Of a stretch of DNA of 64,000 bases, positions 33,490-51,687 are shown in pieces. The position numbers and the translations under genes are program-made. Source of the DNA: Escherichia coli (GTDB lineage Bacteria; Pseudomonadota; Gammaproteobacteria; Enterobacterales; Enterobacteriaceae); assembly GCA_902500125.1 (NCBI GenBank), contig GCA_902500125.1_4132.1; one strand, 5' to 3'. The notes under the pieces are model-generated. The model searched no databases. It was not told the DNA's origin and saw only the letters and a list, made by a program, of their open reading frames with translations. The number at the start of each line of letters is the position of its first letter. Within the stretch, counting starts at the first letter, position 1.

Positions 33490-33580
33490 TACTGAATTTT
33501 GGGCGTAACTATGCACCCGGTGGGCTTGAGTCTTTCTCGACTTGATGGAACTATTATACAGTACTGAAAAAATAAAGCAA
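33490..33580 (-). promoter_or_regulatory. U element: promoter + conserved transcribed core
   Basis: Minus strand TTGCTT (33580-33575), 16 nt, TATAAT (33558-33553), then ...ATCAAGTCGAGAAAGACTCAAGCCCACCGGGTGC (core 33525-33513). Confidence 0.45.
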
Positions 33581-33639
33581 TACCCTGGAAGCAAAAAAAT
33601 TTTAATTAATTTGCTTGCTATCCTGGGCCGGACTATGGT

Positions 33640-33702
33640 ACTATATTTCAGTACTGAGAAAGTGCGTTTGCCTGCTAGGGTGCGGGAGTGTATCCTTTTT
33701 TT
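33640..33702 (+). promoter_or_regulatory. U element, degenerate copy (core + T7)
   Basis: CTAGGGTGCGGGAGTGTATCC 33675-33695 followed by T7; no good promoter; converges on next element. Confidence 0.3.
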
Positions 33703-33711
33703 ATATCTTGA

Positions 33712-33796
33712 ATTTTGGGCGTAATTCCGCACCCCCTGGGGTTTCCGCTTTCTCGCGTCTATGTAGTAATTATACGCTTTTTCAGGATCAAGTCAA
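33712..33796 (-). promoter_or_regulatory. U element: promoter + conserved transcribed core
   Basis: Minus strand TTGACT (33796-33791), 16 nt, TATAAT (33774-33769), TACTACATAGACGCGAGAAAGCGGAAACCCCAGGGGGTGC. Confidence 0.45.
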
Positions 33797-33949
33797 TACC
33801 TAAAAACAAAATAATTGAAAATAATTTAACGCGTTTAAACGGCCCGTAAAGCCCTGGAATGATTAGAATGGTGCAAATGTATAGCTTAGGTGTATTAATG
33901 CGTTAGAATGCGTCTGAGGCCGTTTTACGGGGTATAGGGATGATTTAGT

Positions 33950-34115
33950 GGATTGATTCAGTACTGAATAATAGTACTCCTATATAGAAAGATAGTTCCC
34001 CTGGATTGATTCAGTACTGAATAATAGTACTCCTATATAGAAAGATAGTTCCCCTGGATGGTTGCAGTACTGAATGATAGTACTGAATAATAGTTCCCCT
34101 ATATAGAAAGAAAAC
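33950..34115. repeat. 53-bp tandem repeat, 2 exact copies + 1 diverged
   Basis: GGATTGATTCAGTACTGAATAATAGTACTCCTATATAGAAAGATAGTTCCCCT at 33950-34002 and 34003-34055; variant 34056-34115. Confidence 0.85.
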
Positions 34116-34142
34116 TATTTTAAAAGTATTTGTAGAAAGTAC

Positions 34143-34202
34143 TTGCAAACTAAGTTTAACGGCGTATAATGTTTTACATCGAGAGCGGGAACACTTCCCG
34201 CT
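34143..34202 (+). promoter_or_regulatory. PeSL-like cassette (early-type promoter + stem-loop)
   Basis: -35 TTGCAA 34143; -10 TATAAT 34165 + GTTTTACATC; hairpin 34184-34202; ATG 34226. Confidence 0.7.
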
Positions 34203-34225
34203 ACATATTACGAGAGATTAAAACG

Positions 34226-34588
34226 ATGGCGACTCAAATCACTAAAATTATTGCTAACCTGGTTAACTTTCGCGACGAGATGAAAGATCTTCCGGCAGAA
34301 ACGGTAAAAATTCACATTTCAGCTTATCGGGAACTTATTGCAATGTTACCGCTTAAGCGTGAACAATACGCCGCGACCGTGATGCTTGATGCGATGATCC
34401 ATAAGATGATCGCCAGTGATTTAACGATGGTTTATCAGTATATGGGCGAAAATTTCGCGGTGTATAGTAAACCAGTACCAGGAATGGAAAGTACAGAAGT
34501 ATTACACGGTTTAAATTTAAAACAAGATGCATGGGATAATATGCCTCGTTTCCTGGTATGGGCTGACAGTGGCAAGATTTACGAATAA
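34226..34588 (+). CDS. hypothetical protein (120 aa)
   Basis: ORF 34169 trimmed: its first 19 codons read through the -10 and hairpin; ATG 34226 follows GAGAGA. Confidence 0.65.
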   Translation: MATQITKIIANLVNFRDEMKDLPAETVKIHISAYRELIAMLPLKREQYAATVMLDAMIHKMIASDLTMVYQYMGENFAVYSKPVPGMESTEVLHGLNLKQDAWDNMPRFLVWADSGKIYE

Positions 34589-34602
34589 GTTTTAGAAAGT
34601 AC

Positions 34603-34661
34603 TTGCAAACTAAGTTTAAAAGCGTATAATGTTTTACATCAGGTGGGGAATAGTTCCCCAC
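34603..34661 (+). promoter_or_regulatory. PeSL-like cassette
   Basis: TTGCAA 34603; TATAAT 34625; hairpin GTGGGGAA-tag-TTCCCCAC 34643-34661; ATG 34682. Confidence 0.7.
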
Positions 34662-34681
34662 TATATAAGAGGATTAAAAAA

Positions 34682-34921
34682 ATGGCTAAATCAAAAATGT
34701 TCTTAGGTCACAAAAACAAAACTCATTGGAATGTAAGCCTTTGGATTAATAACGATGAGTCATTGTACCGGTTGGCCCAGGACTTTATTAACGATAGCAC
34801 TAATCGCAATGATGCGGCCCGTCATATGATGTTATTTTTAGAACAGACTGGACAAGATAAAACACCGGACGGATTCAAATATAGCACTACTGCGATCCGT
34901 GCGGCTATGGTTGGAATGTAA
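34682..34921 (+). CDS. hypothetical protein (79 aa), paralog of 36724..36963
   Basis: Trimmed from 34643; shared GHKNKTHWNVSLWINN..ESLYRLAQ...TPDGFKYSTTAIRAAMVGM. Confidence 0.7.
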   Translation: MAKSKMFLGHKNKTHWNVSLWINNDESLYRLAQDFINDSTNRNDAARHMMLFLEQTGQDKTPDGFKYSTTAIRAAMVGM

Positions 34922-35009
34922 TAGAATAGAATTTATTTAAAGTACTATTGCACGGGGATAGTACTTTATAATAGTGTTTTATTCATACACCAACGATAAG
35001 GGCAACAGC

Positions 35010-35276
35010 ATGAATATTAAGTATTTTGCGACGCGTGAACAAGCTCGGATCGCCGCTCGCCAGGACGGGGCAACGTTTAAAGATATGGGCGTACAATCGG
35101 AACGTGGTAAACGTTGGGCCATTGTAAAGCGTAGTACAGCCAGATCATTACAGTACTGGTTAGCGGCGTTAAAAAGTCCCGATAGTGTATCGCGTCGAGT
35201 GGTAGAAATAAAGCTCGACCGAAAGGGCAACCGCGTGACCGTGTACCGTACTAAAAAGATTGCAGTACTTGAATAA
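35010..35276 (+). CDS. hypothetical protein (88 aa), paralog of 46942..47337
   Basis: Trimmed from 34974; KYFATREQARIAARQDGATFKDMG...DRKGNRVTVY shared with 46942. Confidence 0.65.
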   Translation: MNIKYFATREQARIAARQDGATFKDMGVQSERGKRWAIVKRSTARSLQYWLAALKSPDSVSRRVVEIKLDRKGNRVTVYRTKKIAVLE

Positions 35277-35283
35277 AAAGTAC

Positions 35284-35342
35284 TTGCACCGTACTGATAA
35301 AAGCGTATAATGTTTTACATCGAGAGCGGGAACTCTTCCCGC
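35284..35342 (+). promoter_or_regulatory. PeSL-like cassette
   Basis: TTGCAC 35284; TATAAT 35306; hairpin 35326-35342; SD GGAG. Confidence 0.7.
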
Positions 35343-35363
35343 CTATAACCTGGAGTAATGAAA

Positions 35364-35594
35364 ATGACTAATATGTATATGACTGAAGTTAAAACCGTAA
35401 AAGATACTACCACGAATAAAACTACTTACTTACAGCGGATCTGTGGTGTATGGCAACGTATCAGCAAATCAAAGTACTTTAAATTAACATCATATGCAAA
35501 CCGTTCGGATTCATTCAGTACTGAAATAAAAGGTAATAAAGTACACCAATACGGCACTTATTATTATTACAGCCTGGACGCGATTGCAGTATAA
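35364..35594 (+). CDS. hypothetical protein (76 aa)
   Basis: ATG 35364 is 8 nt after GGAG (ATG 35358 is too close to the SD). Confidence 0.6.
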   Translation: MTNMYMTEVKTVKDTTTNKTTYLQRICGVWQRISKSKYFKLTSYANRSDSFSTEIKGNKVHQYGTYYYYSLDAIAV

Positions 35595-35624
35595 GCAGTT
35601 TACAAATCTTTACAATTGCCGGTA

Positions 35625-35704
35625 TTGACTTATTTTGTCAGTACTGGCATAATGTATTCATTGGCAGATAAGCCGTAGCCCATAGGGTGCGGGAGTGTAT
35701 CTAT
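35625..35704 (+). promoter_or_regulatory. U element: promoter + conserved transcribed core
   Basis: TTGACT 35625, 17 nt, CATAAT 35648; core GCCCATAGGGTGC 35678-35690; TGTATCTAT 35696-35704. Confidence 0.5.
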
Positions 35705-35734
35705 AGAAAAATTAGTTTAGTATAGTTACAATTG

Positions 35735-35797
35735 TGCACCCGGTGGGTTAGCTGTTGTCATGGGGTATATTATGCCAGTACTTGATAATGCTGTCAA
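35735..35797 (-). promoter_or_regulatory. U element, convergent partner of 35625-35704
   Basis: Minus strand TTGACA (35797-35792), 17 nt, CATAAT (35774-35769), core AACCCACCGGGTGC (35759-35746). Confidence 0.5.
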
Positions 35798-35843
35798 TAC
35801 TTTTTTTTAATATTCAGTACTGAAAACTATTTTTAAAAAGTAC

Positions 35844-35871
35844 TTGTAAACTATGTTTAAAGGCGTATAAT
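35844..35871 (+). promoter_or_regulatory. early-type promoter (upstream of tandem pair)
   Basis: AGTACTTGTAA: TTGTAA 35844; TATAAT 35866 + GTTTTACATC. Confidence 0.6.
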
Positions 35872-35876
35872 GTTTT

Positions 35877-35953
35877 ACATCAGGACGGGGAACGAAATAA
35901 GTAACTTCCCGTTAAGTAGCCCAGGAGTAAGGCACACGAAAAACTCCCCTGAT
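35877..35953 (+). ncRNA. conserved structured leader RNA (copy 1 of 3)
   Basis: Closing helix ATCAGG/CCTGAT; inner hairpin ACGGGGAA..TTCCCGT; motifs TAAGTAG, AGTAAG, ACGAAAAACT; near-identical at 46016-46090. Confidence 0.4.
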
Positions 35954-35961
35954 AAAATAGT

Positions 35962-35989
35962 TTGACAATAGAAAGTAAAAGCGTATAAT
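35962..35989 (+). promoter_or_regulatory. sigma70-like promoter (downstream of tandem pair)
   Basis: TTGACA 35962, 16 nt, TATAAT 35984; ATG 36022. Confidence 0.6.
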
Positions 35990-36021
35990 ACTTACATCAA
36001 CTACTGAATGAGGGTTACAAA

Positions 36022-36633
36022 ATGAAAACTATCACTACTACTACTTTTGTTATGGCTTTTTCTGAACTGAACGCAGAACAAAAAACGGCGGCTATCGAAC
36101 TGGTTCGGGATCGTGAGCGTTCATGTGAGGATAATTTCTTTGCTGAGGGCGTTATCGAGTACTATAAAGAAACAGTACTACCAGAATACGGCATAGATGA
36201 AGCTGAATTGCAATACAGTGGTTTTTGGTCGCAAGGTGACGGTGCATCAATCAGTACTAACCACGTTGACGCTGAGAAGTTTTTACGCAAGGTTAAGGCG
36301 TTAACGAAATATCGTTCAATCCGTCACCTGTTGAACGAGGATGATTTAGAAATGAGTGTAGAACGTTTCCAATCACGCTACGCACACGAAAACACGGTAG
36401 GCGGTTGCGTTGATACTCGCTACACTGATTTAACTGTAAAACAGGCGGCATTGGCTGAGGATCTGGAAAACTTACTGACTGATGCGATCCGTGAATTATC
36501 TCGTAAGTTGTACCGTGATTTAGAGAATGCATATGAGGATCAATTCACTACTGAAAACATTACTGCACTGATTGAGGGTAACGAATATCAATTCAATGTT
36601 ATTGATGGCGTAGTGGAATCAATCGAATATTAA
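36022..36633 (+). CDS. hypothetical protein (203 aa)
   Basis: ORF track; GAGGG upstream; acidic; motif GFWSQGDGAS; function not recognised. Confidence 0.7.
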   Translation: MKTITTTTFVMAFSELNAEQKTAAIELVRDRERSCEDNFFAEGVIEYYKETVLPEYGIDEAELQYSGFWSQGDGASISTNHVDAEKFLRKVKALTKYRSIRHLLNEDDLEMSVERFQSRYAHENTVGGCVDTRYTDLTVKQAALAEDLENLLTDAIRELSRKLYRDLENAYEDQFTTENITALIEGNEYQFNVIDGVVESIEY

Positions 36634-36644
36634 TTTAAAAAGTA

Positions 36645-36705
36645 CTTGTAAACTAAGTTTAAAAGCGTATAATACTTTACATCAAGGCGGGGAGTGGTTC
36701 CCCGC
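36645..36705 (+). promoter_or_regulatory. PeSL-like cassette
   Basis: TTGTAA 36645; TATAAT 36668; hairpin GCGGGGA-gtggt-TCCCCGC 36687-36705. Confidence 0.7.
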
Positions 36706-36723
36706 TCAAACGAGGATTTAAAA

Positions 36724-36963
36724 ATGGCTAGTACTAAAACTTACAACGGACACAAAAACAAAACTCATTGGAATGTAAGCCTTTGGATTAATAACGGTGA
36801 GTCATTGTATCGGCTTGCTCAAAGTTGCATCGCACAAAGTAGAACTAAAGATATTGCTGCGGAATGTATGTACCGCAGATTAAAAGCCAACGGTACTACT
36901 ACAACGCCGGACGGCTTTAAGTATAGCACTACTGCGATCCGTGCTGCAATGGTTGGAATGTAA
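36724..36963 (+). CDS. hypothetical protein (79 aa), paralog of 34682..34921
   Basis: Trimmed from 36694 to ATG 36724 after GAGGA. Confidence 0.7.
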   Translation: MASTKTYNGHKNKTHWNVSLWINNGESLYRLAQSCIAQSRTKDIAAECMYRRLKANGTTTTPDGFKYSTTAIRAAMVGM

Positions 36964-37020
36964 TATTCAGTACTGAGATAATGGCGGGTAATAGTTCCCG
37001 CCTTTACTGAGGGTTATCTA

Positions 37021-37281
37021 ATGAGTAAAGTAATTAGCTATACAGCACTAAGCAAGTCATTATCTATTAGCCAGTGCACCGATGGTTATTGGCTTTATGA
37101 TGAAACGCGTGGAATGAATTTAGCTATGCGTGCAAAAACTGCTGAGGCGGCGTATCTTGAGGCACTGGAATACTACCAGGAACGTTTAACGGAAGTAGAA
37201 GAAGATTATAAAAGCCTCAAAGCGAAAGTAGATCATTTCGTCGGTCAATTCATCGAGGAAGACGACGATAAACAATACTGA
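37021..37281 (+). CDS. hypothetical protein (86 aa)
   Basis: ORF track; GAGGG upstream; preceded by hairpin GGCGGG-taatagtt-CCCGCC. Confidence 0.6.
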   Translation: MSKVISYTALSKSLSISQCTDGYWLYDETRGMNLAMRAKTAEAAYLEALEYYQERLTEVEEDYKSLKAKVDHFVGQFIEEDDDKQY

Positions 37282-37291
37282 AAAAAAGTAC

Positions 37292-37350
37292 TTGCAATTA
37301 GTTTTCAGTACTGTATAATGGTTTACATCAAAGGGAGAAATGGTTCTCCC
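37292..37350 (+). promoter_or_regulatory. PeSL-like cassette
   Basis: TTGCAA 37292; TATAAT 37314; hairpin GGGAGAA-atgg-TTCTCCC 37333-37350. Confidence 0.7.
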
Positions 37351-37369
37351 TGGTAATGAGGAAAATAAA

Positions 37370-37591
37370 ATGGCTAATATCACTACTCTTTCCCAACTGG
37401 AAGCACTGGTGAAATCTATGCGGGAACATGCCGACAAAATCGGCGTACAAGATCCAGCCGTTTGCTTCTGCGACGAATTGAATGATGATACCCTGGTAAT
37501 AGCAGAAGTCCAGGACGTTTCTAACTATTCATCGCGTTACACTGGCGGCGTAGCAAATAAAGGCGACTTCTGTTTATACCTTACAAAATAA
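37370..37591 (+). CDS. hypothetical protein (73 aa)
   Basis: Trimmed from 37340 to ATG 37370 after GAGGAA. Confidence 0.65.
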   Translation: MANITTLSQLEALVKSMREHADKIGVQDPAVCFCDELNDDTLVIAEVQDVSNYSSRYTGGVANKGDFCLYLTK

Positions 37592-37595
37592 CAAC

Positions 37596-37626
37596 GCGGG
37601 GAGATAATAACTCCCCGTTACTTTTT
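37596..37626 (+). terminator. rho-independent terminator
   Basis: CGGGGAG-ataataa-CTCCCCG then TTACTTTTT. Confidence 0.6.
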
Positions 37627-37639
37627 CAGTACTGAATCA

Positions 37640-37726
37640 TTTAATAGACGGATCTCGGCACCCGGTGGGTTAGTGACTGTTTCGTCTTGATGTAGTAATT
37701 ATGCCAGTACTGGATGCACTTGTCAA
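37640..37726 (-). promoter_or_regulatory. U element: promoter + conserved transcribed core
   Basis: Minus strand TTGACA (37726-37721), 17 nt, CATAAT (37703-37698), TACTACATCAAGACGAAACAGTCACTAACCCACCGGGTGC (core 37671-37658). Confidence 0.5.
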
Positions 37727-37759
37727 CAACTATTTTTCAAATACTTTTTATTAAAATAC

Positions 37760-37814
37760 TTGCAATTAGTTTTTAAACGCGTATAATGTTTTGCATAGGG
37801 GGAGCGGTTCCCCC
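37760..37814 (+). promoter_or_regulatory. PeSL-like cassette
   Basis: TTGCAA 37760; TATAAT 37782; hairpin GGGGGA-gcggt-TCCCCC 37798-37814. Confidence 0.7.
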
Positions 37815-37835
37815 TGGTAACTAAGGAATAATAAA

Positions 37836-38072
37836 ATGCTTGAACAAATCAAATCAACGACTTCGAATGTAACGGGAACGGTAGCACACTTTACTAGTGA
37901 TGAATCGCGGGGCGTACCCTATTGTGCTGTACATGTAAACACTGATGGCAACTACTGGTTTACTGTTTACGGATCATATTCCTTTGGACGACCAGGGCAT
38001 CAAAAAATTCTGGATAAAGTACAGCCAACGGGTAAAAATATCACTGCTGAAATGTTTTATAAAAAATCATAA
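37836..38072 (+). CDS. hypothetical protein (78 aa)
   Basis: ORF track; TAAGGAA SD. Confidence 0.65.
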   Translation: MLEQIKSTTSNVTGTVAHFTSDESRGVPYCAVHVNTDGNYWFTVYGSYSFGRPGHQKILDKVQPTGKNITAEMFYKKS

Positions 38073-38077
38073 AGTAC

Positions 38078-38136
38078 TTGATAATAGTTTTTAGTACTGT
38101 ATAATATTTTACATCGCAAGGGGGAGCGGTTCCCCC
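38078..38136 (+). promoter_or_regulatory. PeSL-like cassette
   Basis: TTGATA 38078; TATAAT 38100; hairpin 38120-38136 identical to the one at 37798. Confidence 0.65.
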
Positions 38137-38156
38137 TGGTAACTAAGGATAATCAA

Positions 38157-38456
38157 ATGAAAATTGCAATCATCGCCCTGGCTTTATCTGTTTCCTCTTT
38201 CGCTGTTAATGCGTCATTAGATGTAAGTAGTGAAAAATTCATTCAGTGCACTGTTGCAATGACCGATGAAAGTACTGGCGAGATTGTATTAAAGGATCTG
38301 GAGATTCAGCCGGAAGCATTTAAAAACGGCCCGTTCCATGAAGAAGACGAAAACGGTAGCACGACAATTTATTATGATGCCAGTACTAAACGCGGTTCGG
38401 TCACTGTAATGGATACTGAGAAAGTAACGCATACCGGCGTTATTAATTGCCGTTGA
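38157..38456 (+). CDS. small secreted protein, signal-peptide/Cys-pair family
   Basis: Signal peptide MKIAIIALALSVSSFAVNA; Cys pair IQCTVA ... VINCR. Confidence 0.7.
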   Translation: MKIAIIALALSVSSFAVNASLDVSSEKFIQCTVAMTDESTGEIVLKDLEIQPEAFKNGPFHEEDENGSTTIYYDASTKRGSVTVMDTEKVTHTGVINCR

Positions 38457-38477
38457 TAGATACTACGGGGTAACATC

Positions 38478-38708
38478 ATGACTAAGCGAATTGTTTTACT
38501 TAACGAAAGCAGTACTACACAACTACTTAACGCCGTGCATTATGATATTGAAACGAGCGTTAATCTTATCAGTACTGTAGTACTGTTGGACACTGGAAAG
38601 GTCGCCAATGATAAAGCGATTGCAGGTATATTAACGGATCTTGAGCCTGGTAGCAGTGCACCAATAACGTTAAATGGTAAAGTGTTTAATATTTTACTCA
38701 CTGATTAA
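38478..38708 (+). CDS. hypothetical protein (76 aa)
   Basis: ORF track; GGGG upstream. Confidence 0.6.
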   Translation: MTKRIVLLNESSTTQLLNAVHYDIETSVNLISTVVLLDTGKVANDKAIAGILTDLEPGSSAPITLNGKVFNILLTD

Positions 38709-38714
38709 GTACAT

Positions 38715-38737
38715 AGCCCACCTGGTGGGCTTTTTTG
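38715..38737 (+). terminator. rho-independent terminator
   Basis: AGCCCACCTGGTGGGCT + T6. Confidence 0.75.
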
Positions 38738-38790
38738 TTTTTGTAGTATCGTAGTACTGAGATACTTTGAAAATAGTTTTAAGAAAGTAG

Positions 38791-38818
38791 TTGACATTAC
38801 CGCAGAAAAGCGTAGAAT
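38791..38818 (+). promoter_or_regulatory. sigma70-like promoter
   Basis: TTGACA 38791, 16 nt, TAGAAT 38813. Confidence 0.55.
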
Positions 38819-38823
38819 GTATT

Positions 38824-38898
38824 ACATCAAGACGGGGAGCACTAAGTAGACCGCCAGTAAGTCGAACGAAAAACTGGACACGTCGAGAAAACTTTGAT
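38824..38898 (+). ncRNA. structured leader RNA (diverged copy 3)
   Basis: ACATCAAGACGGGGAG...; closing helix ATCAAG/CTTTGAT; shares TAAGTAG, AGTAAG, ACGAAAAACT with 35877 and 46016. Confidence 0.3.
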
Positions 38899-38941
38899 AC
38901 ACTAATAAACGTAAACTAAACTTTAATTGAGGATTTATAAA

Positions 38942-39424
38942 ATGGCTAATGTAAAATCATTCATCAAAGCACTGGTAGCAAATGAAACTAACGTCGCGGC
39001 TGAGATCCTGGCTGAACTGGATAACGATACCATGAAAGCGGTACGCAATAATTTTAACATCGCGTACAGTACTGCGAAAGAACTACAAGCAAATAAAGCG
39101 GCAGAGATTGAAGCAGCGAAGGCGGCCCGTGAAGCAGAACTACAAGCAACAATTGAAAGTATCCAGGCGGCAGTAGTTGGGCTGGATCTGGAAGTAGTTA
39201 CCGAGATGGCACAAAAAGCCCTGGCGGTTAAGTACGGGGAAGATAAGCCGGAATCTAAGCCTAAAAAATGGATTCAAGAACGTGTAGCGGTAGTACTTGA
39301 TAACGGGGAAGAATATCTGATTCCGGTGCGTGGTAACTGCATTGCGGTAGTACTGGATGCTATCAAAGAAAGCGGATTGACTCGCGAGGAATGGATCGAA
39401 GCTCATCGCAAAGTTGAAGCATAA
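38942..39424 (+). CDS. hypothetical protein (160 aa), Ala/Glu-rich helical centre
   Basis: Trimmed from 38927 to ATG 38942 after GAGGA. Confidence 0.65.
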   Translation: MANVKSFIKALVANETNVAAEILAELDNDTMKAVRNNFNIAYSTAKELQANKAAEIEAAKAAREAELQATIESIQAAVVGLDLEVVTEMAQKALAVKYGEDKPESKPKKWIQERVAVVLDNGEEYLIPVRGNCIAVVLDAIKESGLTREEWIEAHRKVEA

Positions 39425-42460: not shown

Positions 42461-42548
42461 AAGGGTTGACTCCGGTCAGTCCCTTTGCTATTATATATAC
42501 ATACCAGCGATACACTGGCGGCCCATAGGGTGCACAAATGTATCTATT
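42461..42548 (+). promoter_or_regulatory. composite cassette: terminator hairpin carrying -35, plus U element core
   Basis: GGGTTGAC-tccg-GTCAGTCCC; TTGACT 42466, 17 nt, TATTAT 42489; core GCCCATAGGGTGC 42521-42533; TGTATCTATT 42539-42548. Confidence 0.55.
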
Positions 42549-43860: not shown

Positions 43861-43944
43861 TTGACAATATCATCCAGTACTGGCATAATACTTACATCAA
43901 GACGAGAACGTCACTAACCCATAGGGTGCACAAATGTAACTATA
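43861..43944 (+). promoter_or_regulatory. U element: promoter + conserved transcribed core
   Basis: TTGACA 43861, 17 nt, CATAAT 43884; ACTTACATCAAGACGAGAACGTCACTAACCCATAGGGTGC (core to 43930). Confidence 0.5.
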
Positions 43945-45429: not shown

Positions 45430-45436
45430 AAAGTAC

Positions 45437-45835: not shown

Positions 45836-45848
45836 AAATAATTGAAAA

Positions 45849-45930
45849 AGGGATTGACTCCGGTCAGTCCCTTTGCTATTATATACGCATAGAAACAAAT
45901 TAGCCCACCGGGTGCATAAATGTATCTATT
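45849..45930 (+). promoter_or_regulatory. composite cassette: terminator hairpin carrying -35, plus U element core
   Basis: AGGGATTGAC-tccg-GTCAGTCCCT; TTGACT 45854, TATTAT 45877; core GCCCACCGGGTGC 45903-45915; TGTATCTATT 45921-45930; Chi 45935-45942 follows. Confidence 0.55.
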
Positions 45931-46010: not shown

Positions 46011-46015
46011 GTTTT

Positions 46016-46090: not shown

Positions 46091-46098
46091 AAAATAGT

Positions 46099-46126
46099 TT
46101 GACAATAGAAAGTAAACGAGTATAAT
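46099..46126 (+). promoter_or_regulatory. sigma70-like promoter (downstream of tandem pair)
   Basis: TTGACA 46099, 16 nt, TATAAT 46121. Confidence 0.6.
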
Positions 46127-46159
46127 ACTTACATCAACCACTGATAAGGAAACATTAAA

Positions 46160-46435
46160 ATGCGGATTCTACTGACAGCTAACGAAATCGAACAAGTACT
46201 GACTACTAACCTGGAACAATGGAAACGTGATGCAGATATCCAGGCGGTTCAATGGCTTAACGATAAGTTAACGCCGGATGACTTAAGCAAGATTGTAGAT
46301 CCTCAATTCTACGAAGATATTCACGACACGGCTTTAAGCGTCGAGGATGTACTTGATAAGCATTACATTAATACCGATTTACAGGTTTACGGGCGTAAAA
46401 ACTTTATCACTATTCACGACATTTACAATACTTAA
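46160..46435 (+). CDS. hypothetical protein (91 aa)
   Basis: ORF track; AAGGAAA SD. Confidence 0.65.
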   Translation: MRILLTANEIEQVLTTNLEQWKRDADIQAVQWLNDKLTPDDLSKIVDPQFYEDIHDTALSVEDVLDKHYINTDLQVYGRKNFITIHDIYNT

Positions 46436-46438
46436 GTA

Positions 46439-46500
46439 TTGACAAAGTATCTTAGTACTGTATAATAGTTTACATCAAGGCGGGGAAATGGTTCCCCTCC
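46439..46500 (+). promoter_or_regulatory. PeSL-like cassette
   Basis: TTGACA 46439; TATAAT 46461; hairpin 46479-46500. Confidence 0.7.
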
Positions 46501-46522
46501 TAACAAAGAGAGAGAAATAAAA

Positions 46523-46846
46523 ATGGCTATGATCCTTACCCAGAAAGTGGAATTGAAAATTGTAACCTCCTTTGACATTAAAGTTAATCGCTGGACTGAT
46601 CGGAACGGCAATACTTACCACTCTTGCTACGTGTCTGCGTTAATTGGCGACCGCTGGGAAGACCTGGGACACGAAACCTTTACATACGGTTACGGTACGC
46701 AAGGCGAATACACTGGTTTGGAGATCATTAAAGAAACCGTTATAGGTTTCAACCCGAAAGAAAAAGTTATGCACCGCATCGAAAAAGAGATTAACAAAGA
46801 AATAACAGTTCGCTACTACGATGTAAAACGTAAGAAAGACATGTAA
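46523..46846 (+). CDS. hypothetical protein (107 aa), paralog of 40543..40887
   Basis: ORF track; shared motifs (see 40543). Confidence 0.7.
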   Translation: MAMILTQKVELKIVTSFDIKVNRWTDRNGNTYHSCYVSALIGDRWEDLGHETFTYGYGTQGEYTGLEIIKETVIGFNPKEKVMHRIEKEINKEITVRYYDVKRKKDM

Positions 46847-46868
46847 TAGAATCCATTTAAAGTACTAT

Positions 46869-46897
46869 TTGACATTGCCCAGATAGTACTTTATAAT
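46869..46897 (+). promoter_or_regulatory. sigma70-like promoter
   Basis: TTGACA 46869, 17 nt, TATAAT 46892; a decayed copy lies upstream of 35010. Confidence 0.6.
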
Positions 46898-46941
46898 AGA
46901 CTCTAACTTGTAGTACTAACTCAACTAATAGGATGTATACC

Positions 46942-47337
46942 ATGATTACTAAATTCTACGCTACCCGTGAAGCTGCCCGTATTGTTGCACGCGAGGAAGG
47001 AGCAGCATTTAAAGACATGGGAACGACAGCACCGAAAGGTCAACGCTGGGCCGTACAGTTCAAAGAAATCTCTGATATTGTGAATTCACCTGAGCCAGTA
47101 CTAACAGCAGCAGAACTAAAACGAGCGGATATGCTGGCGGCAATACTTGACGCACAAGATGAGTTTATCGCTGATTCTGATATCAAAGTACAGGTAAACC
47201 ACACCGCATGGACTCACGCGGATCACCTGGCAAACCTTAAGCGTCCAAGTGAACTGATTCGCAACCAGAAAGAGATCCGACATGATCGTAAGGGTAATCG
47301 TGTAACAGTATACAGTAAACGCCGCCAGGTTATCTAA
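46942..47337 (+). CDS. hypothetical protein (131 aa), paralog of 35010..35276
   Basis: ATG 46942 is 9 nt after AGGA (ATG 46933 overlaps the SD). Confidence 0.65.
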   Translation: MITKFYATREAARIVAREEGAAFKDMGTTAPKGQRWAVQFKEISDIVNSPEPVLTAAELKRADMLAAILDAQDEFIADSDIKVQVNHTAWTHADHLANLKRPSELIRNQKEIRHDRKGNRVTVYSKRRQVI

Positions 47338-47359
47338 TAACTTGCAGTACTAACAACAC

Positions 47360-47384
47360 GGCGGGATCAGTTCCCGCCTTTTTT
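47360..47384 (+). terminator. rho-independent terminator
   Basis: GGCGGGA-tcagt-TCCCGCC + T6. Confidence 0.75.
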
Positions 47385-47398
47385 ATAGGACAAACAAA

Positions 47399-47653
47399 AT
47401 GATTAAGGTTCAACTATATAAAGATAACATCTTACGGGTACACTATAAAGCACCGAAGAGAATCATCACAAAGGCCGTACAGCTTGCTAATGAGTTTATT
47501 AATGGTAACCTATTACCAAGGAAGTTAAGCAACGGGAAACTGCGTGTAATCGACGTGGACACTAACAACAGGATAGTAATCGAGAACACAGGAAAAATAA
47601 ACCTTTATGAGCATCAACAATACAATAAGAAAATAAAACTAATATCACGTTGA
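47399..47653 (+). CDS. hypothetical protein (84 aa)
   Basis: ORF track; AGGA upstream. Confidence 0.6.
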   Translation: MIKVQLYKDNILRVHYKAPKRIITKAVQLANEFINGNLLPRKLSNGKLRVIDVDTNNRIVIENTGKINLYEHQQYNKKIKLISR

Positions 47654-47678
47654 CAGTACTCAAATGTTTTAGTATTAT
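47650..47678 (+). promoter_or_regulatory. sigma70-like promoter (about 60-bp unit repeated at 47924)
   Basis: TTGACA 47650, 17 nt, TATTAT 47673. Confidence 0.6.
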
Positions 47679-47706
47679 GTACACATACCAACACGGGAGA
47701 AACAAA

Positions 47707-47925
47707 ATGAAATTATCTAAAATCGAAAAGAAAACTATTGATGAAGCAGTTAAGCACGGTTATACCTTTCGTAATGATTCACATTTTACCAATTTTCAAC
47801 AGGGGTATCGTACTATTAAAAAACTAATTGACAAAGGTTTATTAGTTGAAGTCAATAATGGGAACGGTATCGAGTATCAGCCAACCCAAGACGCATTATC
47901 TTTAAAGAAATATAATATTATCTAA
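47707..47925 (+). CDS. hypothetical protein (72 aa)
   Basis: ORF-track TTG 47650 trimmed to ATG 47707 after GGGAGAAA. Confidence 0.6.
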   Translation: MKLSKIEKKTIDEAVKHGYTFRNDSHFTNFQQGYRTIKKLIDKGLLVEVNNGNGIEYQPTQDALSLKKYNII

Positions 47926-47954
47926 TTGACAGTACTCAAATGTTTTAGTACTAT
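47926..47954 (+). promoter_or_regulatory. sigma70-like promoter (repeat of 47650)
   Basis: TTGACA 47926, 17 nt, TACTAT 47949. Confidence 0.55.
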
Positions 47955-47983
47955 ATGTACATACCAACACGGGGAAAAACAAA

Positions 47984-48226
47984 ATGATTACTTTAGAAAA
48001 ACGTATCAAAGAAACTACATCGCTGGTGGAATTGTTAACAGTACTCAAATGTAAAACAACACCATTCAGCACGCCGGACTTTATTAATATGGTTGATGTT
48101 AATGGTCGCTATCGTATCACGGTCGAACAAGGAGCGGCGAAAGTATTCAGTACTAAAAACACGAAGGAAGTGATCCACGCCGTTAATGTTAAAAAAGTAG
48201 TTGCCATTGATAGTAAAGTACTGTAA
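47984..48226 (+). CDS. hypothetical protein (80 aa)
   Basis: ORF track; GGGGAAAA upstream; contains Chi at 48022. Confidence 0.6.
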   Translation: MITLEKRIKETTSLVELLTVLKCKTTPFSTPDFINMVDVNGRYRITVEQGAAKVFSTKNTKEVIHAVNVKKVVAIDSKVL

Positions 48227-48257
48227 TATAGTTTCATTAACTCAAGGAGAACATGCA

Positions 48258-48842
48258 ATGCGTAATTATACTAAATTCATCCGTACACTGTCAGAAATGG
48301 AAACCAACAAAGAGATCCTTTCAGCTTGTCGGTTAGCTGGCCTGGAGATCATCGGTGCTGGTTCTTCCCGTATAGTTTTCGCTTTAAATGATCGGTTAGT
48401 GATTAAGGTCGCGAATTGTGATGCGGGTGTAGAACAAAATGAAACTGAATGTAAGGTATGGAATTTTTTAGACTATGACCGCCCTCAGTTGAAACAGTAC
48501 TTTGCAAAGGTGCATATGCATTTATGCGATCCTGATAATATGTTTATCGTTATGGATCGGTTGAGTACTGCAAGCAAAGGTAGTGTGAAGCACGTAAACG
48601 CGTGCAATGAATTAAAGTACAATATTAAACGTAATGCAATCGAACGCCAGCACCGCTTTGCTGATGCACTACAACACGTCGATGATACATTATCAACACT
48701 AACGATAAGAGATATCAGAAAACAGAATATCGGCCAGGATCGTAATGGCCTTATTAAAGTACTTGATTACGGTTTAACCTGCAATATCTGGAATCAGTAC
48801 TATAAAAAGCGTGATGTGGCAGCAAGTAAGGTAACACGATAA
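48258..48842 (+). CDS. protein kinase-like fold protein (194 aa)
   Basis: Trimmed to ATG 48258 after AAGGAG; G-loop IIGAGSSRIVF, LVIKVA lysine, IRDIRKQNIG catalytic-loop-like, VLDYGL (DFG-like). Confidence 0.55.
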   Translation: MRNYTKFIRTLSEMETNKEILSACRLAGLEIIGAGSSRIVFALNDRLVIKVANCDAGVEQNETECKVWNFLDYDRPQLKQYFAKVHMHLCDPDNMFIVMDRLSTASKGSVKHVNACNELKYNIKRNAIERQHRFADALQHVDDTLSTLTIRDIRKQNIGQDRNGLIKVLDYGLTCNIWNQYYKKRDVAASKVTR

Positions 48843-48855
48843 AAAAGATTAAAAA

Positions 48856-48942
48856 AGGGATTGACTCCGGTCAGTCCCTTTGCTATTATATATCCATTGA
48901 GAGATAACTCACTGACCCATAGGGTGCGGAAGTGTATCTATT
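48856..48942 (+). promoter_or_regulatory. composite cassette: terminator hairpin carrying -35, plus U element core
   Basis: TTGACT 48861, TATTAT 48884; core CCCATAGGGTGC 48916-48927; TGTATCTATT 48933-48942. Confidence 0.55.
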
Positions 48943-48983
48943 ATATAAGTATTCAGTACTGAAAACTATTTTTTAAAAAGTAC

Positions 48984-49044
48984 TTGCATTGTACTTAGAA
49001 TCAAGTATAATGTTTTATATCGAGAGGGGGAAATGGTTCTCCCT
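48984..49044 (+). promoter_or_regulatory. PeSL-like cassette
   Basis: TTGCAT 48984; TATAAT 49006; hairpin 49025-49044. Confidence 0.7.
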
Positions 49045-49065
49045 GGTATATTAAGGAATAAAATC

Positions 49066-49287
49066 ATGACTACAATGACTTGCATTTACGCTTCCAATCG
49101 TCTGAATGATGCGGCCTTTAATGTTGATTCAGAATATCAATGTTATCGGGATGAAAATAAAAAAGTTTTTGTAGTTGATAATAATGGTTTCCATATTGAA
49201 TTACAATCCGGCTTCACTGGTGTTGATGGTAAATCAGTATGGGGCGTACAGGATGATAAAGGTACATATCATTTTAAACGTAATTAA
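49066..49287 (+). CDS. hypothetical protein (73 aa)
   Basis: Trimmed from 49033 to ATG 49066 after AAGGAA. Confidence 0.65.
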   Translation: MTTMTCIYASNRLNDAAFNVDSEYQCYRDENKKVFVVDNNGFHIELQSGFTGVDGKSVWGVQDDKGTYHFKRN

Positions 49288-49291
49288 GTAT

Positions 49292-49350
49292 TTGACAAAG
49301 TATCTTAGTACTGTATAATAGTTTACATCAAGGGGAGAATAGTTCTCCCC
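49292..49350 (+). promoter_or_regulatory. PeSL-like cassette
   Basis: TTGACA 49292; TATAAT 49314; hairpin GGGGAGAA-tag-TTCTCCCC 49332-49350. Confidence 0.7.
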
Positions 49351-49371
49351 GATACTAAAAGGAATAAAATC

Positions 49372-49776
49372 ATGACTACTACTAATCTTGCTCGGAATAT
49401 CGCCAACGATAAAAATCATGCTGCAATGGTCGCTGGTTACATTGAAGCTATGCAATTCAGTACTGTACATAATGATAACGGCGATTACCTGGAAGATTAT
49501 GAGTTATCTGATGAAGCACGTCAAGCGGCGGTGATTGCATGTTCTCGCTTCATTGAGAAACACGGTAATGATCTGGAAGTAGTTCGCGGTATGTTTATTG
49601 ATTACGGTTATGAGCAAGCTGGTCATGATCTGTTCCTTACCCGCGAAGGTCACGGAACTGGTTTTTGGGATCGTGGTTTAGGTCACTATGGCGATGTATT
49701 CACGAAGTACTGCGAAGAAATCAACGTTTGCGATCCCTATGTAGGCGATGATAACTTAATCTATATGGGCGAATAA
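49372..49776 (+). CDS. hypothetical protein (134 aa)
   Basis: ORF track; AAGGAA SD; motif GHDLFLTREGHGTGFWDRG; function not recognised. Confidence 0.7.
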   Translation: MTTTNLARNIANDKNHAAMVAGYIEAMQFSTVHNDNGDYLEDYELSDEARQAAVIACSRFIEKHGNDLEVVRGMFIDYGYEQAGHDLFLTREGHGTGFWDRGLGHYGDVFTKYCEEINVCDPYVGDDNLIYMGE

Positions 49777-49782
49777 AAGTAT

Positions 49783-49841
49783 TTGACAAAGTATATCAGT
49801 ACTGTATAATAGTTTACATCAAGGGGAGAATAGTTCTCCCC
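49783..49841 (+). promoter_or_regulatory. PeSL-like cassette
   Basis: TTGACA 49783; TATAAT 49805; hairpin 49823-49841 (same as 49332). Confidence 0.7.
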
Positions 49842-49863
49842 AATACTAAAAGGAAACAAAATT

Positions 49864-50136
49864 ATGTCCAGCTACTCCGCTACTATGATCATTAAAGATA
49901 TGAACGGTAATCCTACTTCTGCTGGTGGATCATTTGGAAATATTAACTTAGATGGGCGGTTATCCATGCAATCAGCCATCGATGCAGCGAAAGAAGTTTT
50001 TAAGAATGAATGTACTGTTAGTAAGCTGGATTATATGGGTTTCGCTATCGAGAAAACTACTCGTTTTGTGAACTACAAAAATCCACTGATGATTGATACT
50101 AACCTGAAAGCTAACGAAGTGGGGTACTTATTATGA
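49864..50136 (+). CDS. hypothetical protein (90 aa)
   Basis: ORF track; AAGGAAA SD; contains Chi at 49921. Confidence 0.65.
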   Translation: MSSYSATMIIKDMNGNPTSAGGSFGNINLDGRLSMQSAIDAAKEVFKNECTVSKLDYMGFAIEKTTRFVNYKNPLMIDTNLKANEVGYLL

Positions 50137-50324
50137 CAGTAGAAGAAGTAAAAAAAGTACTGGCAGTACTACGATATCATAATCATTGCAAGGTGAAGAA
50201 TGATCCTGATTATCTTGATTCATCCCTGGAGGAAGACACCTTGAACGCTATAAGCCATATGCAGACATTAGCAAAGCGTATGACTGAAAAGAACATGCCG
50301 GACTATATCGGAAATAAAATTTAA
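50133..50324 (+). CDS. hypothetical protein (63 aa)
   Basis: ATGA-coupled to previous gene. Confidence 0.6.
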   Translation: MTVEEVKKVLAVLRYHNHCKVKNDPDYLDSSLEEDTLNAISHMQTLAKRMTEKNMPDYIGNKI

Positions 50325-50331
50325 AAAGTAC

Positions 50332-50393
50332 TTGCATTGTAGTTAGATTAACGTATAATGTTTTATATCGAGAGGGGGAAATGGTTTCCCCTC
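50332..50393 (+). promoter_or_regulatory. PeSL-like cassette
   Basis: TTGCAT 50332; TATAAT 50354; hairpin 50372-50393. Confidence 0.7.
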
Positions 50394-50411
50394 AAGTCCA
50401 GGAGATACACA

Positions 50412-50675
50412 ATGAACACTATCGAAATCACTATCAATGCACACGTATACGACAACGTAGTACTGCAAACTACTATGACCGCTAATGATACCAGTACTTT
50501 GCGGAATACTGTTATTAGTGCCGTATGTGCTGCAATCGGTGATGTATCCCTGGAAAATGCAGAACATATCAACAACGGTTTCACTATGTGCAAGCGTGAT
50601 AACGCAAAACATATCATCGTGGAAGGTTACGGCGGTGTAGAATTTAATGTTTATATGAAAAAAGTACTTGCATAA
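50412..50675 (+). CDS. hypothetical protein (87 aa)
   Basis: Trimmed from 50358 to ATG 50412 after AGGAGA; C-terminus KKVLA* is encoded by the next cassette's AAAAAAGTACTTGCATAA. Confidence 0.65.
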   Translation: MNTIEITINAHVYDNVVLQTTMTANDTSTLRNTVISAVCAAIGDVSLENAEHINNGFTMCKRDNAKHIIVEGYGGVEFNVYMKKVLA

Positions 50676-50724
50676 TAACTAAAACAAAGTATAATGTTTT
50701 GCATAGGGGGAGATATCCTCCCCC
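50668..50724 (+). promoter_or_regulatory. PeSL-like cassette
   Basis: TTGCAT 50668; TATAAT 50690; hairpin GGGGGAG-atatc-CTCCCCC 50706-50724. Confidence 0.7.
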
Positions 50725-50742
50725 ACTAAAAGGAGTAATAAA

Positions 50743-50967
50743 ATGGCTAACTTTGATGAACTGATGCGGGAAGTAGCTAACCTGGCAGAAGAGAAGAAAT
50801 CATTCGATTCTATCTATAACACCGCTCACCGTGATTCAGTACTGGCATGTAACCAGGATCAAAAAGATGAACTAATCGCCACCTATCATGAAGCATGGAA
50901 GTACTACCGACAATGGGAGAAAGAAGAAAGTGAGTCTACCATTGACGGCCTCAATAATCTAATCTAA
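50743..50967 (+). CDS. hypothetical protein (74 aa)
   Basis: ORF track; AAGGAG SD. Confidence 0.65.
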   Translation: MANFDELMREVANLAEEKKSFDSIYNTAHRDSVLACNQDQKDELIATYHEAWKYYRQWEKEESESTIDGLNNLI

Positions 50968-50986
50968 AAGTTTTATTTCAGTACTA

Positions 50987-51015
50987 TTGACATAGCTTGA
51001 TAGTACTGATGTAAT
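50987..51015 (+). promoter_or_regulatory. class-2 promoter
   Basis: AGTACTATTGACA: TTGACA 50987, 17 nt, TGTAAT 51010. Confidence 0.55.
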
Positions 51016-51043
51016 AACTTTACTAACTACAAGGGGAAACATA

Positions 51044-51301
51044 ATGGATCAGTTCACACAATATCGGGTAAATCCTCAAGCTATGGCCTACGTAGAAGAC
51101 CATAAAACGTTACCAGTACTGCAACCAGTTAAAGGCCATATCTATCGTGCAATGTCGTGGTGTGCGGCCCAGGATGGCTATAAAACCGTAGCCGTTGGTA
51201 TGTACTGCGGTAATGGTGAATGGTTTGATCCAAATAATCCGGTATCCATTGACAGTACTGAAAAAATGAAATGGGCCGACTACATCGAAGATATTTCATA
51301 A
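51044..51301 (+). CDS. hypothetical protein (85 aa)
   Basis: ORF track; AGGGGAAA upstream. Confidence 0.65.
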   Translation: MDQFTQYRVNPQAMAYVEDHKTLPVLQPVKGHIYRAMSWCAAQDGYKTVAVGMYCGNGEWFDPNNPVSIDSTEKMKWADYIEDIS

Positions 51302-51308
51302 AAACTAT

Positions 51309-51369
51309 TTGACAGTACTAACCAGTAATGTATAATGTTTTACATAGAGCGGGGGAATAGTTCTCCCGC
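51309..51369 (+). promoter_or_regulatory. PeSL-like cassette
   Basis: TTGACA 51309; TATAAT 51331; hairpin 51349-51369. Confidence 0.7.
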
Positions 51370-51391
51370 CAATAGTTTGGAGTAAAACATT

Positions 51392-51592
51392 ATGTCTATC
51401 GCTATCGCCCTGGTTGAAGTACTGAAAGAAGCTAAAGCCAACCAGATCGACGTAAAGATCCAGGAACTACAAAACGGCTTAATCGGCTGTACTTGTACCG
51501 CTGGTGGAGCGGCAGACTATCGAGAACACGAATCACTCGAATCACTGGTTCGGTATCTTACCATGATCGTTGATGATTGGAGAATCATCTAA
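51392..51592 (+). CDS. hypothetical protein (66 aa)
   Basis: ORF track; GGAG SD; contains Chi at 51500. Confidence 0.65.
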   Translation: MSIAIALVEVLKEAKANQIDVKIQELQNGLIGCTCTAGGAADYREHESLESLVRYLTMIVDDWRII

Positions 51593-51608
51593 CAAAAAAG
51601 AATAAAAA

Positions 51609-51687
51609 AGGGATTGACTCCGGTCAGTCCCTTTGCTATTATATACGCATAGACAAAAACTAGCCCACAGGGTGCATAGGTGTATCC
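51609..51687 (+). promoter_or_regulatory. composite cassette: terminator hairpin carrying -35, plus U element core
   Basis: TTGACT 51614, TATTAT 51637; core GCCCACAGGGTGC 51663-51675; TGTATCC 51681; Chi 51722-51729 follows. Confidence 0.55.

Follow-up and report, generated by a model that had tools for sequence, protein, structure and literature searches.

Why should a short, promoter-bearing sequence that encodes no protein recur on both strands of a phage genome? The question is raised by the U elements in a 64,000-nucleotide (nt) stretch of DNA deposited as Escherichia coli (contig GCA_902500125.1_4132.1 of assembly GCA_902500125.1), hereafter referred to as the window. A sequence-only reading of this stretch described eleven such elements, each combining a promoter with a conserved core and lacking an open reading frame (ORF). 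It proposed short RNAs, nut/boxB-like antitermination or processing sites read into downstream genes, or recombination or protein-binding sites. We find that the U elements are very probably a real, conserved RNA motif that is transcribed. Our favored explanation, to which we assign a probability of roughly 0.4, is that they form a family of autonomous early sibling small RNAs, with the core serving as a protein-recognition handle and possibly toggling between two hairpins.

Results and discussion

The core CCCANNGGGTGC is present exactly ten times in the window, at 33513 (-), 33729 (-), 35679 (+), 35736 (-), 37658 (-), 42522 (+), 43918 (+), 45904 (+), 48916 (+) and 51664 (+). A scan allowing one mismatch returned 11 matches where 0.76 were expected, and none of 100 shuffles contained as many. 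A covariance model of 51 positions, based on one window unit and nine units of the same length from relatives, was run over all 64 kb with filters off. It recovered the same ten units (E 9e-14 to 2e-4) and, as a partial match, a decayed copy at 33676-33695 (+) with an E of 0.17; the next-best match had an E of 2.9. By exact core scan and covariance model, the eleven places named in the sequence-only reading hold ten full units and a decayed one. The latter, unit 11, is the copy placed at 33640 and called degenerate, and it does lack a promoter.

All ten full units and the decayed one fall at 33,495-51,693, wholly within a direct terminal repeat (DTR). The window derives from an Asteriusvirus (PBECO4/121Q-like) jumbo coliphage, and positions 33400-38000 are 92-95% identical to Asteriusvirus coliphages such as JNE01, UE-S1, BF17, PBECO4 and phAPEC6. 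Both base 1 of fEgEco12 (PP777464.1) and base 1 of vB_Ec-M-J (OQ718158.1) align at window position 32398. The vB_Ec-M-J record annotates a DTR at 1-21525, and that of fEgEco12 measures 20,993 bp, as checked by restriction digests (PMC13070987), its end mapping to window position ~53,090. Since the DTR starts and ends of relatives map to 32398 and ~53,090, the window assembly represents one collapsed DTR copy of ~21 kb (32398..~53090) that contains every U unit. By analogy with phages such as T5, this region is probably expressed first in infection.

A sigma70-type promoter was found at all ten full units, both by a consensus scan and by a separate script. The consensus TTGAC(A/T) given for the -35 element in the sequence-only reading fits nine of them, the exception being 33513 (-) with TTGCTT. 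When units from all phages are considered, a promoter matching at least 9 of 12 consensus positions, with its -10 hexamer ending 5-7 nt before a conserved CAU, accompanies 61 of 64 distinct units. An ORF preceded by a Shine-Dalgarno (SD) sequence was found in none of the window units, as had been claimed, and genes matching PHROG families occupy the spaces between units. A 99-amino-acid ORF with a GTG start (33433-33732, minus strand) covers two U units and is almost certainly spurious; likewise, coding sequences labeled 'hypothetical protein' are annotated over U units in several deposited genomes.

Following the promoter is a transcribed module of ~50 nt with its predicted start at the A of CAU. 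Directly after the start, approximately three quarters of units have a hairpin, P1, which is missing from the remaining quarter. P1 has a 3-5 bp stem and a purine-rich loop of 6-8 nt (AGAUAA, AGAACAA, GAGAAA or GCGAAA), and its stems comprise more than 15 distinct sequences, every one of which is complementary. A 24-nt string that the sequence-only reading assigned to three copies is this hairpin; it occurs in only two (37658- and 43918+), with differing loops, and 33513 (-) is merely similar. P1 is followed by CUAR, the invariant CCCAYAGGGUGC, six mostly purine bases ending in U, and GYRYCY, which is usually GUAUCU. The earlier description of this 3' end as TGTATC after five nucleotides holds for six of the ten window units, the others having TGTAAC, CCGTCT or TTACGCCC.

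Covariation was assessed in a model-guided alignment of 101 matches (90 distinct) in Rak2-like loci. In P1, both sides vary at all four pairs, and 91.8% of cells are paired compared with 37-50% when the 3' partner is slid, a figure that a model-fitted alignment favors, although the stems are plain in the raw sequences; none of 500 shuffles reached the score. A second helix, P3, is a 6-bp, G-U-rich pairing of GGGUGC with GYRYCY that is paired in 89% of cells, with U57-R68 in 90/90 and G58-Y67 in 89/90 sequences. Its variation is limited to U/C opposite G and A/G opposite U, giving mostly G-U pairs, and this helix is therefore possible on the transcribed strand only. A third, P2a (RCCC-AYA-GGGU), is a 4-bp triloop hairpin that is 98% paired and has a loop of 3 or 4 nt; one compensatory change (CCU..AGG) was counted, and a second was put by the alignment in an insert column. 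RNAalifold independently selects P1 and P2a. P2a and P3 are mutually exclusive, as both need GGGU, and they are closely matched: mean energies are -3.7 and -2.9 kcal/mol, respectively, the median difference is 0.1, and P3 is the more stable in 44 of 90 sequences. Two further pairings were considered, a helix closing the 5' and 3' ends and a pairing of the P1 loop with the 3' arm (AGAUA with UAUCU). Each is found in some subtypes only and shows no covariation, and neither was adopted.

The same features bear on whether the conserved block is instead read as duplex DNA, CCCAYAGGGTGC being an operator or a roadblock site at which a DNA-binding protein of phage or host would sit just 3' of early promoters, for example to shut them off. 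The block is invariant and promoter-proximal without exception, CCC-N3-GGG is partly palindromic, and the units adjoin an over-represented palindrome, AGTACT, that is itself protein-site-like. However, the distance from start to core ranges from 14 to 24 nt, the spacer of the palindrome is 3 or 4 nt, P1 covaries, and the G-U pairs of P3 would be meaningless in duplex DNA. We consider a DNA site improbable. It is the coupling to the start site, the covariation of P1 and the G-U-dependent P3 that place the motif at the RNA level.

The distribution of the family was determined by scanning IMG/VR with an exact pattern and then with the covariance model. True units were confined to Rak2-like contigs, which included RaK2, GAP32, CBB, 121Q, Yersinia phage fHe-Yen9-04 and uncultured genomes or fragments of 355-366 kb; blastn added K64-1, Salmonella phages and Erwinia phages. 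The model gave no matches outside Rak2-like contigs, and lone pattern matches in other viral contigs were attributable to chance. Each complete genome carries its units in one 15-25 kb stretch, which is duplicated in CBB, whose record holds both repeat copies. The core is near-invariant in phages of Escherichia, Klebsiella, Cronobacter, Pectobacterium and Yersinia, and the 12-nt block is constant although the genomes otherwise share only ~23-29% nucleotide identity (Yersinia and Klebsiella aerogenes relatives). That the block does not vary in phages of five or more host genera is an argument that some conserved macromolecule recognizes it specifically. The same P1 subtypes reappear in different genera, which makes the paralogues seem old. 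The sequence-only reading did not remark that the units lie in a terminal repeat, that one hairpin covaries, that two others compete or that the family is conserved between host genera.

That reading did not recognize the core, and we likewise found no match to anything known. Rfam 15 gave no match at gathering score over the whole window, and relaxing E to 5 for 33400-37800 returned chance-level matches only, none of them on a unit. A blastn search of one unit against 5,426 E. coli genomes had no match. A 26-nt consensus pattern had 0 matches in 185,579 bacterial and archaeal genomes; a shorter pattern gave 9 scattered matches in unrelated taxa of the same set, which were taken as chance. Full-text literature searches for the 12-mers returned just unrelated primer coincidences, and the searchable literature, outside of which much subscription literature lies, contains no description of U elements. 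In genome papers on CBB, RaK2, fEgEco12 and Sharanji, regulation is either left undiscussed or confined to a list of RpoD-like promoters. U elements cannot be classed as nut sites, tRNAs or members of a known terminator class. ARAGORN predicted 0 tRNA or tmRNA genes in the window, and among the window copies only the decayed one qualifies as terminator-like (33677-33696). Mimicry of RNase P (M1) RNA was rejected (best local score 22 against a null mean of 21.4, equaled by 83 of 200 shuffles), as was a mini-ORF initiating at the NUG that the P3 loop and arm form, where a start codon is present in just 35 of 64 units. LexA boxes, suggested by TACTGT..ACAGTA hairpins in relatives, were absent from the window.

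A close published design is that of the promoter-early stem-loops (PeSLs) of T4-like phages, which are cassettes of an early promoter and a stem-loop (PMC2839356, PMC4122927). U elements may similarly be composite terminator/promoter modules that are conserved mainly as homology for the shuffling of small early genes, the transcribed core being a by-product. Both are repeated, intergenic modules with a sigma70-type early promoter and a stem-loop, situated among small ORFan genes of plastic early regions. In addition, the promoters of units 6 and 8-10 (42463, 45847, 48854 and 51607) lie within an A3G3..C3T3 hairpin that encloses the -35 element and closely resembles the A3-4G3-loop-C3T3-4 stem-loops in the PeSLs of Vibrio phage nt-1. 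The stem-loop is joined to the promoter in these 4 of 10 window units and is absent from the TTGACA/CATAAT class. The PeSL stem-loop, however, is an upstream terminator, and the PeSL definition includes no conserved transcribed core, whereas U carries a covarying 50-nt transcribed module conserved across host genera. Junctions of insertions, deletions and replacements also avoid the U units: in comparisons of the window with fEgEco12 and with vB_Ec-M-J (two comparisons, and thus a small sample), every junction is 350 bp or more away from the nearest unit and falls at a tandem repeat or a gene-proximal promoter. Conservation driven by homology would predict neither the compensatory changes of P1 nor a 12-nt block invariant across divergent genera, and we regard a PeSL-like origin of the conservation as having little likelihood. 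The positions of these junctions in close relatives also weigh against the earlier suggestion of recombination or protein-binding sites, which the units may nevertheless be.

If the RNA itself is the conserved entity, it could act either on the transcript that it begins or on its own. Neighboring genes match PHROG families of unknown function, and the units are located in either orientation between a terminator and the promoter of the next gene. No co-oriented, SD-preceded ORF is present within 450 nt of 33 of 67 units, and 20 of 64 face a convergent partner at a fixed distance, as do 35679 (+) and 35736 (-) in the window, and 33729 (-) with the decayed 33640 (+). A terminator follows 40-46 nt past ~10 units of several lineages (37658- in the window, RaK2 and uncultured contigs). 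A promoter and intrinsic terminator of their own without an ORF, as would be expected of Hfq-type trans-acting small RNAs, are seen in these units and not in the tandem or convergent ones. The presence of units in either orientation, together with many orphans that have their own terminators, argues for autonomy rather than dedication to a downstream gene. A third arrangement is that of ~17 of 64 units (42522+, 45904+, 48916+ and 51664+ in the window), which are followed by a second promoter without an intervening terminator and then a gene. The earlier proposal of processing sites read into downstream genes fits only units so placed. An AGTACT box lies at most 12 nt after 23 of 45 non-convergent units.

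The main rival to autonomous small RNAs is a cis-acting leader, in which the nascent U RNA, or a small hairpin of the non-template strand, modifies RNA polymerase or decides its fate. Such a leader could be a put-like or ops-like processivity element, a promoter-proximal pause, or an attenuator in which a factor that stabilizes P2a blocks P3. This would suit the tandem units, the invariable position of the element at the very start of the transcript, and the two exclusive hairpins with GGGU in common. A U-run after P3, as in a terminator, is present at the decayed 33677-33696 and in GAP32 (L068:8951), and in CBB (L039:3173) a U-run past the 3' arm went unflagged by the terminator scan. Furthermore, six of ten window units are co-oriented with gene cassettes ending in hairpins that overlap the next U promoter, and certain pairings of U subtype and gene persist across genera (cluster 0). 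A leader does not suit the orphans: about half of the units have no gene to regulate, their transcription running into a terminator 45 nt away, into a convergent partner or, in antisense, into the 3' end of a gene, and a processivity element that halts at the first terminator would be self-contradictory. Throughout the window there is no terminator between a U unit and the first gene. In most units P3, with three G-U pairs, is followed by AUWR and lacks a U-tract, and differing U subtypes can precede one downstream gene family (cluster 1). We consider a cis-acting leader rather unlikely, even as the foremost of the alternatives.

The put RNA of phage HK022 is a cis-acting antiterminator whose nascent form renders the polymerase resistant to terminators; a genome has two copies, and each heads an operon. 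Like put, U would be a promoter-proximal, ORF-less nascent RNA of ~60 nt with small stem-loops, in the early region of a phage dependent on host polymerase. It differs in its ~10 copies per repeat, half of them orphan or antisense, and no sequence relation to put was found. The suggestion of nut/boxB-like sites is not supported as a whole, although P1 does resemble boxB: it is a small hairpin placed close behind an early promoter, and its purine-rich loop (GAGAAA, GCGAAA) is GNRA-like. In contrast to lambdoid nut sites, the conserved element is 3' rather than 5' of the hairpin, and boxA is lacking: YGCTCTTTA with at most one mismatch occurs 27 times in the window against 27.2 expected, with no occurrence within or beside a unit. 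Nor was an N-like gene identified among the terminal-repeat genes. Many units head no operon, since those 33 of 67 have no co-oriented ORF within reach and others end at a terminator or a convergent partner.

A third possibility is that U transcripts serve as origin or primer RNAs, forming R-loops in the terminal repeat or switching on its replication or recombination, comparable to T4 oriF/oriG, ColE1 RNA I/II and the lambda origin. Convergent pairs would yield complementary structured RNAs, the repeat is rich in Chi sites, and units 1 and 2 (the only two to fit) are directed at a region near the end of the repeat where ORFs are absent and an iteron-like array (33190-33330) and AT-rich DNA are found. 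On the other hand, ten origins within 21 kb are implausible, most units have neither iterons nor an unwinding element close by, and an R-loop primer has no need of a folded, covarying RNA. This we hold to be very improbable.

Under the favored explanation, autonomous early small RNAs, host sigma70 RNA polymerase would transcribe U RNAs from the strong early promoters of the DTR. Each RNA would begin at CAU, fold its variable P1 and continue into the invariant block CUAR-CCCAYAGGGUGC-RRRRRU-GYRYCY, which would fold as either P2a or P3. Sibling RNAs would accumulate in high copy early in infection, with the invariant block recognized by a conserved protein of host or phage. The U RNAs would then act in trans as decoys or ribonucleoprotein components rather than as antisense regulators. 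The sequence-only reading is thus partly supported: its option of short RNAs is the best backed, by covariation and G-U pairs on the transcribed strand and by several complete promoter-to-terminator genes.

Two systems offer close parallels to such RNAs. Vibrio Qrr1-5 are sibling small RNAs in which an invariant segment is a single-stranded seed for mRNA pairing. U elements resemble siblings of this type as paralogous short RNAs with their own promoters, sometimes their own terminators, and one invariant block beside variable hairpins. They differ in that the U block is internally paired and has no complementary target beyond chance in the 64-kb window, where extra sense or antisense copies of the core number 3 at two mismatches against 3.2 expected. 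As a precedent, the jumbo phage PA5oct produces abundant ORF-less transcripts from its terminal repeat, amounting to 2-5% of phage reads by RNA-seq (PMC7318152). These RNAs, ncRNA001 and ncRNA002, are comparable in that they lack an ORF and come from a long terminal repeat, PA5oct being a distantly related jumbo phage that likewise depends on host polymerase. At 236 and 451 nt they are of different length, and they were rejected as U homologues; the covariance model finds nothing in the PA5oct DTR (best E 0.37).

Several observations weigh against autonomous small RNAs. P2a and P3 are both weak (-3 to -4 kcal/mol), and single-sequence folding of the units is unremarkable (z -1.2 to -1.7). The ends and abundance of U RNAs are predictions. 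With six of ten window units aiming at downstream genes, and ~17 of 64 overall followed by another promoter and no intervening terminator, such units could equally be mRNA leaders. No candidate for an RNA-binding partner emerged among 30 repeat genes searched against Pfam and PHROGs. Finally, antisense action may be possible, the search for complementary sites having covered the 64-kb window.

A more specific and unlikely version of the same explanation is that U RNAs are a host-takeover device. In it, a bistable decoy made at once from ~20 gene copies (10 per repeat, two repeats) would titrate or redirect a factor conserved in Enterobacterales; this could for example be an RNA-binding protein or ribonuclease, or else a transcription factor or immune sensor.

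Individual units

The units nearest the left end of the repeat are on the minus strand. Unit 1 (33501..33580, -) has the promoter TTGCTT-16-TATAAT, a predicted start at ~33546, P1 AGUC-GAGAAA-GACU, its core at 33524..33513 and the 3' arm ACGCCC, and scores 47.4 bits; AGTACT is next at 33488-33493, and transcription is directed at the left end of the repeat. Unit 2 (33717..33796, -; 30.2 bits) has TTGACT-16-TATAAT, P1 CGC-GAGAAA-GCG and the core variant CCCAGGGGGUGC, and is convergent with the decayed unit 11 (33676..33696, +). Unit 11 has lost promoter, P1 and CCC; what it has retained is the P3 hairpin AGGGUGC-GGGAG-UGUAUCCU, which, with a T-run after it, resembles a terminator.

Unit 3 (35625..35702, +; 51.2 bits) combines TTGACT-17-CATAAT with P1 UGGC-AGAUAA-GCCG and core CCCAUAGGGUGC. 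It is convergent with unit 4 (35724..35797, -; 26.9 bits), which has TTGACA-17-CATAAT, no P1 hairpin, core CCCACCGGGUGC and the 3' arm GUAACU. RNA reading across this pair would fold as a long hairpin of -42.7 kcal/mol (z -4.9). In some relatives, spacers of convergent units contain AATGATAATCATT or AATGATTATCATT, at ~8080-8110 and ~2820-2845 of locus L001 (from an uncultured 359,777-bp Rak2-like phage) and at ~340-360 of locus L021. These sequences match the core of the Fur-box consensus; a spacer of this type was not seen in the convergent pair of the window.

Unit 5 (37586..37726, -) has TTGACA-17-CATAAT, a U RNA of ~50 nt (37690..37640), an AGUACUG box at 37633..37628 and a terminator hairpin at 37617..37597 that is predicted on both strands; the unit is divergent from a gene promoter at 37760. 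It would be a complete ORF-less gene with a predicted RNA of ~105 nt.

The remaining units are on the plus strand. Unit 6 (42463..42545) has a hairpin enclosing the -35 element (42463-42482), TTGACT-17-TATTAT, P1 CCAG-CGAUACA-CUGG and the core, and is followed by AGTACT at 42561 and 42584, a second promoter at 42589-42616 and a gene at 42668-43009. Unit 7 (43861..43941) has TTGACA-17-CATAAT, P1 GAC(G)-AGAA-(C)GUC, the core and the 3' arm GUAACU, and is located 5' of a DksA/TraR-like gene. Unit 8 (45847..45927) has the hairpin AAAGGGAUUGAC..GUCAGUCCCUUU over its -35 element (45847-45874), TTGACT-17-TATTAT, a short leader with no clear P1 and the core, with a Chi site next at 45935-45942. Unit 9 (48854..48939; 66.1 bits) has a -35 hairpin of the unit 8 type (48854-48881), a promoter, P1 UGAG-AGAUAA-CUCA and the core, and AGTACT boxes, a second promoter and a gene at 49033-49287 lie downstream. 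Unit 10 (51607..51687) likewise has a unit 8-type hairpin (51607-51634), a promoter, a short leader and core CCCACAGGGUGC, followed by a Chi site at 51722, a promoter at 51755 and a gene at 51837-52169. The hairpin AAAGGGAUUGAC-UCCG-GUCAGUCCCUUU thus encloses the -35 element of a U promoter at all four of these sites (units 6 and 8-10). It could terminate upstream transcription just where the next promoter begins, and the same design is present in RaK2, GAP32 and CBB.

Other features of the terminal repeat

Pfam and PHROGs searches of the 30 repeat genes gave family matches to a DksA/TraR-type zinc-finger protein (44186-44443, just 3' of unit 7), which is a possible binder of the polymerase secondary channel, a GNAT acetyltransferase (44508-44864) and a ParE-like toxin domain (47399-47653). 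There was also a weak protein-kinase match (48201-48842), as well as DUF7249 and unknowns.

A 2-kb stretch at the start of the DTR (32115-34168) is without credible genes. It contains the iteron-like array GGATGGCTAGA / GACGGCTAAAC at 33190-33330 with an adjoining AT-rich stretch, 53-bp tandem repeats at 33949-34120 that vary in copy number among relatives, and numerous CAGTACTG boxes, and is a candidate origin, packaging or end-processing region. Chi (GCTGGTGG) is present 16 times in the window against 0.63 expected, 12 of these being inside the terminal repeat. An inverted pair (32976- and 32988+) lies ~580 bp from the left end of the repeat and a second pair is at 39491 (-) and 39553 (+). 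Eight plus-strand sites lie between 43575 and 51722, two of them directly 3' of U units. This enrichment suggests that Chi shields linear ends from RecBCD or favors recombination of the repeats.

In the window, 278 copies of the palindrome AGTACT were counted where 20.8 were expected, a number reached in 0 of 100 shuffles; they are densest at 28000-53000 and thin out sharply past ~53 kb, where the terminal repeat ends. The palindrome lies immediately 5' of a -10-like hexamer (AGTACTG-TATAAT) in 76 copies and overlaps a -35 element (AGTACTTGCAA) in 24, and in relatives pairs of boxes make terminator-like hairpins. AGTACT probably serves either as a promoter element specific to the phage or as the target of a DNA-binding global regulator. 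Promoters close to genes form a second family, AAAAAGTACTTGCAA-16-TATAATgttttACATC followed by a 5' hairpin of the GGGGAAAnnnTTTCCCC type, an SD sequence and ATG, at sites including 34143-34170, 35844-35871, 37760-37787 and 42589-42616. Perfect TTGACA-16/17-TATAAT promoters number 11 in 20 kb, and there is nearly one promoter per small gene.

Conclusions

Rak2-group jumbo phages are under development for therapy, with more than 80% of their genes and all of their regulatory RNA uncharacterized. A model, coordinates and predicted ends make the U motif a concrete starting point for RNA-seq, pull-downs and mutagenesis. It could also be annotated in dozens of deposited genomes, where U sites now carry no feature or spurious 'hypothetical proteins'. 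If they are cis elements, U units would define the organization of early transcription in a 350-kb genome dependent on host polymerase. If trans-acting, U RNAs would bring a non-protein layer to host takeover, and the decoy version, if true, would make them the equivalent, in viruses of bacteria, of the small RNAs that animal viruses produce in abundance.

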